The notes: generated by a model from the sequence alone, not told the origin. DNA of 64,000 bases from a virus (IMGVR_UViG_3300010163_000002:64001-128000); one strand, 5' to 3'. Positions 7,699-30,573 are shown, counted from the first letter of the stretch. Translations and numbers: made by a program.

Positions 7699-8319
7699 TT
7701 AATTACCATGATATAAATCTATATAAGCTATATAAGTAATCATGTTAAATTTTTTCTTATCTATTCTAAATTTAACTACAAATATATTTTCATTGGGTTT
7801 GCTGTATAAAGTCATAAATAATTTATCCGCCTTGGTTATTGGAAGGATTGATGGAAATATTGTAATCAATTTTCCATTAAAATCTGTAATCAACCCGCCG
7901 CTAGATTTATTCATATTGTAAATTTTATCTCTTATTACATCAGACTGTACTTCCGGAGAACAATTATAAGTATCTATATTCTGTGCTATTTGTATTTTAT
8001 TCATCGCCAGTGATAATATAGAATGATCATATCCTATATTTAGTTCCCCTCCAGCAACTGTCTTTATAGTATCGCCAAGATTAAACTCAAATTCTGATTC
8101 TAATGATATAGTTTTCACAAATGCCGATAGCGCCCTCGTATTGATGAGAGCGCCAACAGCATAGCACTTTATAAAATTACTATCTAAAATGATATAAGAT
8201 AATACATCTTTTATATTATCTACTCCTATCATCATATTTTTAACTAGTATAAAGTCTTTACGTTTAAAAGCTTTTGCAGCTTCATTAAGATATACTAATT
8301 CAGCCGTTGTTAATTTCAT
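7699..8319 (-). CDS. Hypothetical protein coupled to DNA polymerase
   Basis: 206-aa ORF overlapping the polymerase 3' end by 20 nt. Confidence 0.75.
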   Translation of the reverse strand: MKLTTAELVYLNEAAKAFKRKDFILVKNMMIGVDNIKDVLSYIILDSNFIKCYAVGALINTRALSAFVKTISLESEFEFNLGDTIKTVAGGELNIGYDHSILSLAMNKIQIAQNIDTYNCSPEVQSDVIRDKIYNMNKSSGGLITDFNGKLITIFPSILPITKADKLFMTLYSKPNENIFVVKFRIDKKKFNMITYIAYIDLYHGN

Positions 8320-10219
8320 ATTTAGGCATCCTTTCTTGTATAATACACATATTTTTAAGTTGAGTATTATTTATTATGCTACACATTGTACGTTGTGAAT
8401 TCTGCGGAATAACATTACACATAATTCTAAGACCGCTAATTGGATCATAAGAATATAAACCTCTCGCTGGAGCTTTAACTTTAGTAAAGTAATGTATAAT
8501 ATCATTATACATATCTTCATATCCTGCAAGATTAAAATATCTTTCGCAGAAGTTAAGTCTATCACGACATACAAAATCTTCAATAAACCATACAGATCTA
8601 TCAAAATACGGATTATTAAATCTATTTTCTTTAAGATCAATAATTTCAGGAAATATTACTTTTCCTCTTTGAGTATTTGGAGCCATATTGTTTTCATCTA
8701 CTATGGAGGGGTACAATGCTTTGTAATCGAAATCGTCTAAATTATCGCATACTAAAATGGCTCTATCATTTATCTTTATTTTAGGTTTATCACTAACCAG
8801 CACAGGATCTGCTACAAATGCTCCGGCAAATCCTACTTTCTCGTTACTTTTGTTTATATTATTTCCAAGGACGTATCCATATTCCCCAAAGTCCTTTGAT
8901 CCACGATTAACAAGGTAAGTTGTTTGTCTATGAACTTTAGCATATCTTGTATTTGTATTCATTGACTTTGAATATACAAAATCTATATCTCCAACCTTAT
9001 GTTCTACACATAGCTGAACTATAGTATCCATTACGTTATAAAATACAAATACTAAATAATTTAAATATGGTAGTTTGGCAAGCTGAGTTGTTATATGTGA
9101 ATAATCAAGCTTTCTTACCCCTGCAAATAATCCGCCAATATAATCAAGTTTGAATGATGCTACCGCTCTTTGACCTTTACGACGAGATGCAAATGTAATC
9201 AACTGATCAAGATATACTGTATAACATGATGCTTGAGCGTAGTCTCCTCTTTCTTCAAATTTATCAGCTCTTTTATCAATATAATAATAGCACTCTTTAA
9301 CCTTAAAATCCGAATGGCAAATTATGTCTTTAGGATCGTATCCTAAATTAATTATTCTTTGAATTAAATATGGTAAGTCGAATGCGATGTTCCATGCTAT
9401 TGCGAAATCGGGTTTCACTGTATTAATTACATTGAATGCATCATGAATTAATTTTATTTCATCATCATAAAATATAATCTGATACTGAAATTCATGTAAA
9501 CCATATCTATGCTCATTCTTCCATCCACCAACATTTTCCTGAACAAACTTCTTTAATCTTTCAGGGATGCCGTTCATATGTTTGAATTCATCTATTAAGG
9601 GATTACTATCGTTCTCCAATAATAAAGTATAAATTCTTTTATTCGCTTCATCTACTAAAGTTATTGCATTTACTGGGCACTCTCCTGGCTCGGGGAAATC
9701 TCCTTTCATGTCAATAATGTCAGTCTCTATATCGAAATATAATTTTGTTGGTTTGAATTGTTCATTCCTATATAATCGCGCAAACTCTTTTCTATAATAA
9801 TCCTCAATATGCATATCTGCAGCAAATACAGATTTAATTTTAAACAATTCATCGTTTGCTCTTGCATTACCATTTCTAAGATTGTCAAAAAAGAATTCAA
9901 GGCAACCAGTTTTTTCAGCAATATCTTTCTTTAAATTATTATACTTACAAGTTACTGGATGAACATATTTTTTCTCTATGCATAATTGATTATATTCTGC
10001 AGGAACCCCTTCATTAAGCATATAATAAGTATATTCTGGCTCATCTATATGCTGAACTTTCTTTTCCATAGTATCCATATCTTTATATATAATATCAATA
10101 CTATCTTTACCATATTTCCCTGTTGCAAGATCTTTTTGTGGTTTATGATATATTACGTTTAGTAGCGAAATATTGTCTCCAATATTATAGCCTTTAATAA
10201 AGGACTTATCAGTATTCAT
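8300..10219 (-). CDS. Family B DNA polymerase, N-terminal subunit (3'-5' exonuclease plus motif A) of a split enzyme
   Basis: ExoI FDIETD, ExoII WNIAFDLPY, ExoIII YNVMD, motif A DFDYKALYPSI; no motif B/C; start refined to MNTDK after AAGGAGG. Confidence 0.85.
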   Translation of the reverse strand: MNTDKSFIKGYNIGDNISLLNVIYHKPQKDLATGKYGKDSIDIIYKDMDTMEKKVQHIDEPEYTYYMLNEGVPAEYNQLCIEKKYVHPVTCKYNNLKKDIAEKTGCLEFFFDNLRNGNARANDELFKIKSVFAADMHIEDYYRKEFARLYRNEQFKPTKLYFDIETDIIDMKGDFPEPGECPVNAITLVDEANKRIYTLLLENDSNPLIDEFKHMNGIPERLKKFVQENVGGWKNEHRYGLHEFQYQIIFYDDEIKLIHDAFNVINTVKPDFAIAWNIAFDLPYLIQRIINLGYDPKDIICHSDFKVKECYYYIDKRADKFEERGDYAQASCYTVYLDQLITFASRRKGQRAVASFKLDYIGGLFAGVRKLDYSHITTQLAKLPYLNYLVFVFYNVMDTIVQLCVEHKVGDIDFVYSKSMNTNTRYAKVHRQTTYLVNRGSKDFGEYGYVLGNNINKSNEKVGFAGAFVADPVLVSDKPKIKINDRAILVCDNLDDFDYKALYPSIVDENNMAPNTQRGKVIFPEIIDLKENRFNNPYFDRSVWFIEDFVCRDRLNFCERYFNLAGYEDMYNDIIHYFTKVKAPARGLYSYDPISGLRIMCNVIPQNSQRTMCSIINNTQLKNMCIIQERMPKYEINNG

Positions 10220-10288
10220 GCATTTTACCTCCTTTAACATTATTTCATTGTGCACTGCTTTATATAGTTTTACCAATCAACACAAATC

Positions 10289-10300
10289 AACATCTTAGTA
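10289..10300 (+). promoter_or_regulatory. Late promoter AACA-N6-TA with no downstream CDS
   Basis: aaca-tcttag-ta. Confidence 0.6.
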
Positions 10301-10506
10301 AATGACTAAATAGCGATACCCTATAAGATGTTTAGTCATTTAATGCCATCTTGTAAAACGAACTTTGTGTGTTGTGACTGTATGGCCTTCCGTTGTTTTA
10401 TTTCGCTGGTATGTTTTTCATTCTGTATCCTCCGATATAGATAGATGCTGTAAATGTACGTGACTCCCGGAGCTGTAGGGTGGCTCCGGGGGTATATTTT
10501 GTTTTT
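10300..10506 (+). ncRNA. Candidate ~200-nt late small RNA
   Basis: Late promoter, 12-bp 5' hairpin (10299-10342), pyrimidine-rich linker with CCTCC, GC-rich terminator 10463-10493 plus T tract. Confidence 0.5.
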
Positions 10507-10514
10507 AGACCTCA

Positions 10515-10526
10515 AACAAATATGTA
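10515..10526 (+). promoter_or_regulatory. Late promoter AACA-N6-TA
   Basis: aaca-aatatg-ta upstream of the 10573 gene. Confidence 0.65.
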
Positions 10527-10572
10527 ATTAATGATACATGTTAAAATTTTTATTTTAAGGAGGATTAAACGT

Positions 10573-11493
10573 ATGGCTCTTCTTAACATTAATAAATTTG
10601 TTAAAGGTTCTGATGATTATGTAGATCACAGCCTCGAACAAAATGCTACGCCTGTTGTTGAAACTATCGATGAAACAAAAAAGAAAAGAACAAGAAAAAA
10701 GAATGAAGTAGTTCCTAGCGCACCAGCTCCTGTTGTACCACAATCAAGCATGTCTTATATTCAGGAAAATATTCCTTATGCTGGAGCTTATGCAGAAACC
10801 ACAAAACAATTAGATGAGACAATTGCCCAACTTAATATATTAGGATCTGATATTGTAACAGACCTCAATATGGTTAGAGCCAATAAAACCATGCGTAATA
10901 AGTATGGTATTATTAATGATATGACTCAGACAGCAGCATCCATTTTGAATGGTAAAATTGCTGCGATTAAAGAAAAGAATTCGACCATTAATACAATTAA
11001 CAAACTCGAACTCGATAGAGTTAAGCAGCTTAAAATTAGTGCATCTGAAGAGGATGATAACACAAAAATTGCAAATCTATATAATGCATTTATTAACACC
11101 CCTGTTGGCGCTGGGCCAGGATTACTTGCTCCGCCAATGCAGGATATTATCGCAGCCGGCCCTTCAGGACCTAATATGCCTGTAGTGTCTCTCGGATCTG
11201 ATCAGCAAGCATGGGAGGCTAGTCTTGATCCCGCTCAGAATCGTATGGTTCTTGAGGCAAAAGGCGCTATAGAAACAATAGTTGTATATGATGAAGCAAC
11301 AGGAAACAGATGGTTTGATGTGGTTGATAAAATCACAAGACAATCTGTGCCAAATGTAGAAAAACCTGATAATTCTTATATCTATGATTTGGATATAAAT
11401 ATCAGGGGTGGATTCGCTAAGGATTCTAATCGTGGGGTAACATATCCATTAGTTGTAATTAATAATGGGGACCAGAGCATTATGCAATATTAA
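10573..11493 (+). CDS. Hypothetical late protein (helical N-domain, small beta C-domain)
   Basis: Start refined to MALLN after AAGGAGG; own promoter and terminator. Confidence 0.8.
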   Translation: MALLNINKFVKGSDDYVDHSLEQNATPVVETIDETKKKRTRKKNEVVPSAPAPVVPQSSMSYIQENIPYAGAYAETTKQLDETIAQLNILGSDIVTDLNMVRANKTMRNKYGIINDMTQTAASILNGKIAAIKEKNSTINTINKLELDRVKQLKISASEEDDNTKIANLYNAFINTPVGAGPGLLAPPMQDIIAAGPSGPNMPVVSLGSDQQAWEASLDPAQNRMVLEAKGAIETIVVYDEATGNRWFDVVDKITRQSVPNVEKPDNSYIYDLDINIRGGFAKDSNRGVTYPLVVINNGDQSIMQY

Positions 11494-29464: not shown

Positions 29465-30145
29465 CTATTCTATGATTATTTTATAGGCTTTATCCATCAT
29501 ACTAGTAATGGTTTCAGCCCATTTACTGAGATCTGTATTTTTATTAGATTCTACAATCTCAGATATAGAATGATAGCCATTTGAATAATAGCCATCATAA
29601 AAACAGTTAGCTATTGATTCTACATCAGCAGCAAACTGTTTATTAACATCCGTATTGTCAGACGTAAGAACTACATCATTTCTGTTGTAGCCCCACCCAT
29701 ACCTCAATGCTGTTGCCATAAGTATGAAGATAGGATCTAATCCATTAGAATTAGACGCCTGACAGAAAACACCCCCTTTCCCATTGAAGATGCTTTCATT
29801 ATTTTCGCAGTGGGATAAATAGTAGTCGATGATTTTATTCATATCATCTTCCGTAATATCCATCCTATTTAATAAATCCATATCAGAATTAAATTCTCCA
29901 TTATACGGAGATGCATCTGACACTTTCTTTGCAACGCCTACCACATTGTATGTAGTGAACATTGCTGGCTCGAAAGTTGGTTCTGTTTCTGTAGCCGCGT
30001 GTACCTCTGGAGACACAGCTTCCACAGGCGTCGCCGAGGTTAAACAGCACTTTAGTGTTGTAATGCCCATAATGACTGACGCTATGATAATAGCGCAATC
30101 CATCATATCAAATCTTTCAAATAGTTTCTTAAATCCCTTATTCAT
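29465..30145 (-). CDS. Membrane-anchored glucosaminidase/lysozyme-like protein, probably inactive
   Basis: N-terminal hydrophobic segment; FCQASNSNGLDPIFILMATALRYGWG resembles GH73 motif ...LESGWG with Glu replaced. Confidence 0.55.
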   Translation of the reverse strand: MNKGFKKLFERFDMMDCAIIIASVIMGITTLKCCLTSATPVEAVSPEVHAATETEPTFEPAMFTTYNVVGVAKKVSDASPYNGEFNSDMDLLNRMDITEDDMNKIIDYYLSHCENNESIFNGKGGVFCQASNSNGLDPIFILMATALRYGWGYNRNDVVLTSDNTDVNKQFAADVESIANCFYDGYYSNGYHSISEIVESNKNTDLSKWAETITSMMDKAYKIIIE

Positions 30146-30190
30146 TAGTACTCCCTTCTCTCGCTCCCCAGCGAGGATCATAGACGTTTT

Positions 30191-30218
30191 TACCCATGTG
30201 CAATTAAGCACATGGGTA
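30191..30218. terminator. Hairpin terminator
   Basis: tacccatgtgc-aattaa-gcacatgggta. Confidence 0.75.
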
Positions 30219-30449: not shown

Positions 30450-30553
30450 CACAACCCAGATGGATTTAACCATCTGGGCAATGTAGGGGTAAGTAAGAAC
30501 TTCAAAAGAAAGTTATAATGGGTTTTAATATATAAAGGCAGATTTATATATTA
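30450..30553 (-). ncRNA. Candidate ~100-nt late small RNA
   Basis: Late promoter aact-attaag-ta (30563-30552), 11-bp 5' hairpin 30526-30553, pyrimidine-rich linker, terminator cccagatgg/ccatctggg at 30455-30478. Confidence 0.5.
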
Positions 30554-30573
30554 CTTAATAGTTCTATTATATA

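Follow-up and report, generated by a model that had tools for sequence, protein, structure and literature searches.

What does a late-type phage promoter transcribe when no coding sequence lies behind it? This question is raised by a 218-nt stretch (positions 10289-10506) of a 64,000-nucleotide DNA sequence, referred to here as the window, which corresponds to bases 64001-128000 of a single viral contig of 248.9 kb and 33% G+C. The contig carries genes for an RNA polymerase beta-like subunit, a gyrase, a DnaB-like helicase, an NAD ligase and the N-terminal half of a family-B DNA polymerase (polB), indicating a jumbo phage that brings its own transcription machinery. The stretch sits in a 353-bp gap between two divergent genes: the polB N-half, on the minus strand, with its ATG at 10219-10217 and AGGAGG upstream, and g2 (306 aa), on the plus strand, with its ATG at 10573 and AAGGAGG upstream. 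Searches of Pfam, PHROG, PDB and Atlas gave no lead to the annotation of g2, and the GenBank phage collection contained no match to either the DNA or the g2 protein. Comparison with metagenomic relatives indicates that positions 10289-10506 are the gene for a real, new structured phage RNA, non-coding and ~200 nt long. Its fold, its strand, the pairing between its loops and the conservation of a segment complementary to start regions come from that comparison, and we infer from them its expression, late timing, action in trans, target and mechanism. Such an RNA would probably damp translation, most likely that of the neighboring g2.

A late-type promoter, a 5' hairpin and a terminator bound a unit without a coding sequence

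The original prediction, made from the window alone, held that a late promoter with no coding sequence behind it, a 12-bp stem at the predicted start and a GC terminator with a T tract define a small RNA at this position, and that the next gene has a promoter of its own; all of these elements were found. Late promoters of Bacillus phage AR9 have the consensus AACA-(6N)-TA/G, the final base of which is the start of transcription (PMC5312081). The sequence AACA-TCTTAG-TA (AACATCTTAGTA, 10289-10300, plus strand) conforms to this consensus and is followed by an ORF-less unit on the same strand; we refer to it as the distal, late-type (AR9-like nvRNAP) promoter. By the AR9 rule the RNA would start at A10300, the first base of the 5' hairpin. 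Because the bare motif occurs approximately once per kb per strand in this genome, its presence alone proves nothing. Sites located 24-60 nt upstream of start codons yielded an extended consensus, roughly CCnnAAACATnnnAGTAA, and a position matrix trained on 23 gene-proximal sites, with the RNA-element locus left out, placed the distal promoter at rank 20 of 2652 AACA sites genome-wide. The genes behind the best-scoring sites include those for two virion structural proteins and a holin, so that the promoter fits the late class and the RNA would be made late. The promoter of the next gene is AACA-AATATG-TA (AACAAATATGTA, 10515-10526, plus strand), a late-type site proximal to g2 that ranks 16 of 2652; a proximal AACA-N6-TA precedes g2 in most relatives as well.

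The stem at the predicted start (10299-10310/10331-10342) is exact, and RNAfold lengthens it to 13-14 pairs. Counted from +1, the 5'-terminal hairpin spans 10300-10341 on the plus strand, with a 13-bp stem and a 16-nt apical region, and its local minimum free energy (MFE) is -11.8 kcal/mol, whereas 25 late mRNAs of the same genome have a median of -3.5 over their first 44 nt, which makes a +1 hairpin unusual among the late transcripts of this phage. At the other end of the unit, a 14-pair GC hairpin (10463-10493, plus strand) is followed by ATATTTTGTTTTT; the arrangement of a GC-rich hairpin and then a U-tract on the transcribed strand is that of an intrinsic terminator, with a U-tract that is interrupted. 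The U-rich tail, AUAUUUUGUUUUU (10494-10506, plus strand), contains the predicted RNA end, giving an RNA of ~199-207 nt. Since such tracts are interrupted, and weak in some of the homologs described below, read-through may be substantial. Over its whole length the 218-nt stretch folds better than all of 200 shuffled versions (z = -3.2). Elsewhere in the window (29498-29523, minus strand), a separate late-type promoter carries a strong 10-bp +1 hairpin of its own, ACCCAUGUGC...GCACAUGGGU (-18.7 kcal/mol), in front of an ORF at 29465-30211.

The unit recurs between polB and g2 in divergent relatives

Searches of IMG/VR and of metagenome contigs with g2 and polB found many loci at which the two genes are arranged divergently. 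The RNA unit lies between them in at least 17 distinct metagenomic relatives, whose g2 identity reaches down to ~48% and whose sequences can otherwise hardly be aligned. What the 17 homologs have in common is an architecture: a distal promoter kept as AACAT-N5-TA (17/17), a hairpin near the start, a U-rich linker of 45-182 nt, and a GC hairpin with a T-rich tail. MAFFT and RNAalifold, applied to whole elements or to the 5' hairpins, failed to align stems that share no sequence, and our support for the 5' hairpin is therefore per-sequence folding, by which most of the 17 homologs form a hairpin that begins within a few bases of the start and whose stem sequence is unrelated from one homolog to the next, and by which L001 and L027 have a local MFE structure without the +1 hairpin fold.

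Loci without the complete unit were also found. Two of them (L005 and L006) have only the distal promoter and the hairpin, which run straight into g2 with no terminator; at L017 nothing of the RNA element is present; and relatives at ~34% g2 identity are without it. The element is likewise absent from L007/L035, where the polB-g2 gap holds a 1.1-kb insert; this insert (L007:2860-4001, on the same contig as L035) contains at least five copies of a CCACCAA(T/A)(A/C)ATCGCCG-like repeat. One homolog that retains the unit, L030, has an additional minus-strand ORF of ~95 aa (L030:1150-1480; ~350 nt) between the terminator and g2, and both the unit and its complementarity to g2 (see below) persist despite this intervening gene. 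The terminator of L030 would also face the 3' end of the inserted gene.

The element is single-copy in the window's genome. A scan of the genome for a promoter followed by a hairpin and a GC hairpin with complementary loops returned only the locus at 10289-10506. A site previously listed as a second candidate late small RNA (window 30450-30563, minus strand) likewise combines a promoter-like site with a +1 hairpin and a terminator; because its loops are not complementary, we rejected it as a paralog.

The terminator helix and a contact between the two terminal loops co-vary

The original prediction proposed covariation across related phages as a check on the RNA, and the homologs provide it for both the terminator helix and a pairing between loops. 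In the terminator helix, 97.9% of cells are paired, compensatory changes occur in 8/9 pairs, and the covariation score is 0.666, compared with 0.175 in shuffles (0/500 reach the observed value) and ~0.09 in slid controls. The strand on which this selection acts can be read from the kinds of pairs that were retained. Read on the plus strand, the two hairpins have 35 G.U pairs, compared with 6 on the minus strand. A U.G pair closing the terminator loop is kept in 12/17 homologs, the plus strand folds better than the minus strand in 13/17 elements, and the T-rich tail follows the terminator hairpin on the plus strand only, in 17/17. Together with the position of the promoter, the G.U asymmetry and the T-tails indicate that the functional RNA is made from the plus strand.

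The co-varying pairing of the 5' hairpin loop with the terminator loop, which the original prediction had missed, is on this comparative evidence our main new result. In the window, UACCCUAUA in the apical loop of the 5' hairpin (10317-10325, plus strand) is complementary to UGUAGGGUG in the terminator loop (10474-10482, plus strand), with a Watson-Crick core of 6 bp (ACCCUA/UAGGGU). Watson-Crick runs of 4-7 nt between the two loops are present in 17/17 homologs (mean 5.5, sum 94), and the 5' kissing segment falls within the unpaired apical loop of the local MFE fold in 16/17. When the 5' apical regions were shuffled, a run of at least 5 nt arose in ~6% of trials and the sum of 94 was reached in 0/2000; the homologs are related, so these shuffle counts overstate independence, though the distinct compensatory switches are many. 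The statistics were obtained with a custom script operating on per-sequence folds, with no structure-based alignment.

The loops comprise 12 distinct strings forming about 10 pair types. Besides the core found in the window, these include ACCCCA/UGGGGU, ACUCCA/UGGAGU, ACCUG(U)/(A)CAGGU, GCCUG/CAGGC, ACCCG/CGGGU, GUCUGG/CCAGAC, GUCAGG/CCUGAC, UCUCG/CGAGA and UCCGGA/UCCGGA. Several can be ordered into stepwise series, from ACCCUA/UAGGGU through ACCCCA/UGGGGU to ACUCCA/UGGAGU, from ACCUG/CAGGU to either GCCUG/CAGGC or ACCCG/CGGGU, and from GUCUGG/CCAGAC to GUCAGG/CCUGAC. Because several of these switches are single compensatory double substitutions, they argue that the two loops truly contact each other as RNA, whether in a single molecule or between two.

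The linker displays the complement of a translation initiation region

Between the two hairpins, positions 10413-10433 are, as had been predicted and as we verified, the exact reverse complement of GGAGGATACAGAATGAAAAAC. The core of this anti-start-region segment (10419-10433, plus strand) consists of CAU at 10419-10421, a 7-nt spacer and CCUCC at 10429-10433, and the CUCC at 10430-10433 forms the predicted loop of a small 8-bp hairpin (10422-10429/10434-10441) with a probability of being unpaired of 1.0. The feature is shared by the family. An anti-Shine-Dalgarno (anti-SD) 4-mer (CUCC, UCCU or CCUC) occurs in 16/17 homologs (shuffle mean 6.8, maximum 12) and is mostly unpaired in the predicted ensembles, CAT-N3-12-antiSD occurs in 12/17 (shuffle mean 1.8, maximum 6), and the plus-strand linkers of all homologs together contain 40 anti-SD 4-mers versus 2 SD-like ones. 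Read from the opposite strand, the same segment is a ribosome binding site (RBS): in the window, the mini-ORF MKNIPAK* (10398-10421, minus strand) lies behind GGAGG-N7-ATG as the mirror image of the anti-start segment. Were this seven-codon ORF translated, the original prediction noted, it would account for the RBS complement in another way. That explanation is weakened by the relatives, in which the minus-strand ORFs range from 1 to 64 codons and share nothing beyond MK, and in four of which there is none; we retain it as a rival below. The linker of the window also contains a GU-rich tract, UUUGUGUGUUGUG (10365-10377, plus strand), and by eye UGUGUG-type tracts are present in the linkers of L001, L026, L028, L016, L038 and L068 as well.

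Across the family, the linker fits its own g2 start region better than those of other phages

The original prediction envisaged a trans-acting antisense RNA that would silence a phage or host mRNA and suggested a search for start regions resembling the 21-nt complement. That search found no partner elsewhere in the phage genome. What stands of the proposal is an ORF-less unit whose promoter, +1 hairpin, exposed anti-RBS segment and terminator are under selection; what does not stand is a dedicated partner for the exact 21-nt complement, and the best partial matches are ordinary, since any genuine start-region query has a median best score as high as theirs, 25-26. The homologous guide of a relative whose genome is 96% complete likewise had no exact or near-exact target there. 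The best duplex in the genome joins 14 contiguous bases of the guide (10423-10436), plus 5 more after a 2-nt bulge, to the start region of a 368-aa gene. This gene encodes an acidic protein, is located at genome position 63270, just before the window, and has the start region CGGAGGAUAUAGAA...AUGA (L070:440-495; genome 63240-63295). We rejected it as a conserved target, as the energy of the duplex lies within the range of shuffled seeds and the start regions of its orthologs in four relatives mismatch their own RNAs.

A different pattern, also missed by the original prediction, emerged when the linkers were compared with the genes beside them: in the relatives, sequence comparison indicates that the anti-RBS segment follows the sequence of the neighboring g2 start region. 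AT-rich noise made a longest-run test uninformative for the start regions of g2 and polB, and we used local alignment and permutation in its place. The reverse-complemented linker aligned better with the g2 start region of its own phage (-18 to +16) than with those of other phages, with a self-pairing score of 276 versus 237 for the null, a value reached by 24 of 20000 permutations and, when the close relative L026 was omitted, by 66 of 20000. The sense-strand control gave p = 0.32, and the polB start region was borderline as a target (p = 0.058), with two polB starts mis-called. In six homologs (L001, L026, L034, L052, L011 and L030) the match spans the SD, the spacer and the AUG in a single register, as in AACCUAUG in L011 and AAAUAU(U/C)UAUG in L034, and between L001 and L026, the linker and its g2 partner both differ at one and the same spacer position. 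When hypothetical read-through RNAs were folded, the SD and AUG of g2 paired with the anti-SD and anti-AUG with probabilities of 0.6-1.0 in L001, L034, L011, L052 and L030.

In the window itself, the candidate target is AAGGAGGAU-N7-AUG (10557-10575, plus strand), and the complementarity is limited to the 7-nt GGAGGAU/AUCCUCC plus AUG/CAU. Among 397 start regions g2 comes 111th with this match of 7+3 nt, and the read-through fold shows weak predicted pairing. Self-pairing across the family, set against this short match in the window's copy, makes g2 the best-supported target of the family and a candidate, not a demonstrated target, in the window's phage. A TATAATATATAAT-like box is located 15-35 nt upstream of the g2 SD in L030, L032, L036, L038, L068 and L017, and is absent from the window.

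A model for the RNA and the alternatives to it

The unit has its own predicted promoter and terminator and no conserved ORF on the plus strand, as expected of a trans-acting small RNA (sRNA). In the model that we prefer, the phage's own multisubunit RNA polymerase would transcribe the RNA from the late-type promoter, from A10300 to the hairpin with its U-tail at 10463-10506. Through its apical loop, the 5' hairpin would then kiss the terminator loop, joining the two ends and leaving the U-rich linker as a large exposed loop. In that loop the linker would present an unpaired mimic of the 16S anti-SD (CCUCC/CUCCUU), usually with a CAU at start-codon distance upstream, the two together forming the complement of a translation initiation region, and the terminated RNA would act as a base-pairing repressor of translation for which the g2 start region is the best-supported target in the family. 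By analogy with Firmicute RNA biology, the +1 hairpin may protect the 5' end against 5' exonucleases. We give an even chance to this model in full, that is, to a terminated, stable late sRNA with ends tied by the loop-loop contact, a 5' end guarded by the +1 hairpin, and a linker that represses translation by pairing with the SD and AUG, primarily those of g2.

Several observations could instead reflect a leader or attenuator acting in cis on g2, in which the kissing contact tunes termination as in guanidine-IV riboswitches and the anti-start segment silences read-through g2 mRNA, so that only transcripts from the proximal promoter are translated. The element is co-oriented with g2 and directly upstream of it in 16/17 homologs, in L005 and L006 the distal promoter and hairpin survive simply as a leader of g2, the predicted pairing of the g2 SD and AUG in cis is strong in five lineages, and hindrance of terminator completion by a kissing loop is an established mechanism (PMC11611296). 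However, with linkers of 45-182 nt a steric conflict of the guanidine-IV type is not obvious, the loops vary too freely for a conserved ligand pocket, most homologs provide g2 with a separate promoter beyond the terminator, and the cis pairing predicted for the window's copy is weak. The arrangement in L030, where a 350-nt gene on the opposite strand separates the terminator from g2 and the complementarity nevertheless persists, favors an independent trans-acting RNA. A cis leader is the main rival reading, though an unlikely one, and it is not mutually exclusive with the sRNA model. Another possibility is that selection acts on the minus strand, on an RBS with a short ORF that serves as a leader peptide, a ribosome-loading site upstream of polB, or a type I toxin, to which the plus-strand RNA would be the cis-antisense partner. 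SD-N3-10-ATG(AAA) is present in 12/17 homologs, some of the ORFs extend to 21-64 codons and have hydrophobic tails, and the spacer varies freely in both length and sequence, as a true initiation site would allow, for which reason we keep this reading as a rival on sequence. It must contend with ORF lengths of 1, 1, 2, 7, 7, 11, 12 and so on up to 64 codons, with the four homologs that have no ORF, with the absence of a minus-strand late-type promoter upstream and with a conserved promoter-like motif that polB has for itself between the element and its start; the G.U pairs, the U.G closing pair and the T-tail, moreover, fit the plus strand only. We consider it highly improbable.

It is also conceivable, if improbable, that the RNA acts by its shape, either as a protein-binding or decoy RNA that mimics the 3' end of 16S rRNA or as a multimer held together by intermolecular loop pairing in the manner of the phi29 pRNA. 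Loop complementarity would serve intermolecular pairing equally well, the GU-rich tracts recur in linkers, CUCCUUU matches the 3' end of Firmicute 16S rRNA, and neither the window's genome nor the 96%-complete relative offers a unique target. A shape-based function would not account for linkers that track their own g2 start regions, and there is neither an identified partner protein nor similarity to pRNA or any other Rfam family. Finally, the hairpins could be DNA-level or insulating elements of a divergent promoter region (an origin, protein-binding sites or an invertible segment) with no dedicated RNA function. The intergenic region is divergent and lies beside replication genes, and on either side of the terminator and proximal promoter lie the two arms of an imperfect inverted repeat, the anti-start segment and the g2 start region. 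That repeat, however, is only 7 bp in the window's phage and gapped in others, the stems retain G.U pairs, which read as A.C on the opposite strand (35 versus 6), and two helices and the loop-loop pair show compensatory changes. A function of this kind has in our estimation only a very small chance of being correct, and we rejected the invertible-segment and origin versions of it on the G.U asymmetry and the shortness of the repeat.

Relationship to known regulatory RNAs

Rfam contained no match to the window at E <= 10 and none at the gathering threshold to 16 homolog loci, and literature searches on small RNAs and kissing loops of jumbo phages and on phage-encoded anti-SD small RNAs yielded nothing comparable. 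To our knowledge, hardly any regulatory RNAs have been described from jumbo phages with their own RNA polymerases. Its functional parallels include the c4 RNA of phages P1 and P7 (immI: c4-icd-ant) and the leader-encoded CI RNA of P4, small phage antisense RNAs directed at the RBS of a downstream gene. As in those systems, the RNA described here is encoded upstream of its putative target, on the same strand, and exposes segments that could pair with the downstream RBS. Unlike c4, which is cut from a longer transcript and serves temperate-phage immunity, it has a separate promoter and terminator and kissing end hairpins, and belongs to a jumbo phage with its own RNA polymerase; it has no sequence or Rfam similarity to c4, so that the resemblance is functional only and does not make it a member of the C4 family.

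The exposed segment itself recalls the C/CU-rich anti-SD sRNAs of Firmicutes, such as the hairpins of S. aureus RNAIII and RsaE/RoxS, in which unpaired or loop-displayed CUCC/UCCC pairs with the SD and in which a 5' hairpin and an intrinsic terminator provide stability. The phage RNA shares the exposed CUCC motif, the 5' hairpin and the intrinsic terminator with them. Those RNAs, however, are encoded by the host, carry several C-rich motifs and do not kiss between their 5' and 3' ends, whereas this one has a single motif coupled to an anti-AUG. The kissing geometry has a precedent in the guanidine-IV (mepA motif) riboswitch, in which an upstream hairpin and the terminator hairpin pair through their loops (PMC11611296). 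The same kind of pairing occurs here. The riboswitch loops are conserved and close together, they bind guanidinium, and their kissing blocks completion of the terminator, while the phage elements have 12 loop strings, linkers of 45-182 nt, a phage gene context and no Rfam match.

A phage-encoded structured RNA with two loops whose complementarity co-varies among relatives is also known from phi29, the pRNA of which is ~120-174 nt long. Despite this likeness, pRNA pairs intermolecularly into a ring on the packaging motor of a small podovirus, and the window gave no match to it in Rfam. The combination of terminator-loop kissing with start-region pairing is found in par (RNA I/Fst and RNA II) of Enterococcus, a type I toxin-antitoxin system composed of two convergent RNAs and encoding a conserved hydrophobic peptide. 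No such peptide is conserved here, the minus-strand ORFs of 1-64 codons being unrelated and four homologs lacking one. As for the transcription unit, late units of AR9 end at hairpin terminators, and internal and antisense late promoters are described in the available part of that report (PMC5312081). The phage unit is like them in its promoter type, AACA-(6N)-TA/G, and in its predicted end at a hairpin, and unlike them in that it would form a stand-alone structured RNA, for which that part of the AR9 report mentions nothing comparable (PMC5312081).

Taken together, these comparisons indicate that the RNA is probably a base-pairing regulatory RNA with a new architecture, representing a new family outside the c4/P4 CI, Firmicute C-rich sRNA and guanidine-IV families. 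The family comes from uncultured phages and is defined by covariation, through two helices (the 5' one by per-sequence folds) and a long-range loop-loop contact. Its readable functional element, the complement of an RBS, and the plausible target next to it make a testable case for late post-transcriptional control in jumbo-phage infection, and the RNA is in addition a compact natural scaffold for the display of antisense guides. Kissing between a 5' hairpin and a terminator loop is a structural principle that is absent from Rfam and may recur widely in phage leaders and small RNAs. Going further, and as a doubtful but possible generalization, phage transcription units may generally use the pairing of a +1 hairpin loop with a terminator loop as a device that needs no protein and that closes the RNA on itself and either sets termination efficiency or makes a nuclease-resistant, pre-organized antisense "lasso". 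If so, the present family would be the first example to operate through a jumbo-phage multisubunit RNA polymerase and to be coupled to a complete guide against an initiation region.

Other features of the locus

The polB side of the gap has features of its own. A two-part motif, approximately TATAA(A/C)-N7-(C/T)ACA-N2-AAATAAT, is located at 10236-10265 on the minus strand, 15-20 nt upstream of the polB SD, and is conserved at the equivalent position in L001, L011, L016, L026, L027, L028 and L052; it may be an early or middle promoter of polB, placed back to back with that of the RNA. The polB gene looks split (7699-10219, minus strand) into a 639-aa N-terminal part with an exonuclease domain and an overlapping 206-aa ORF at 7699-8319. 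ARAGORN found no tRNA, and none lies in the window; in the closest relative, two tRNA genes are located ~4.5 kb downstream of g2 (L001:8447-8821).
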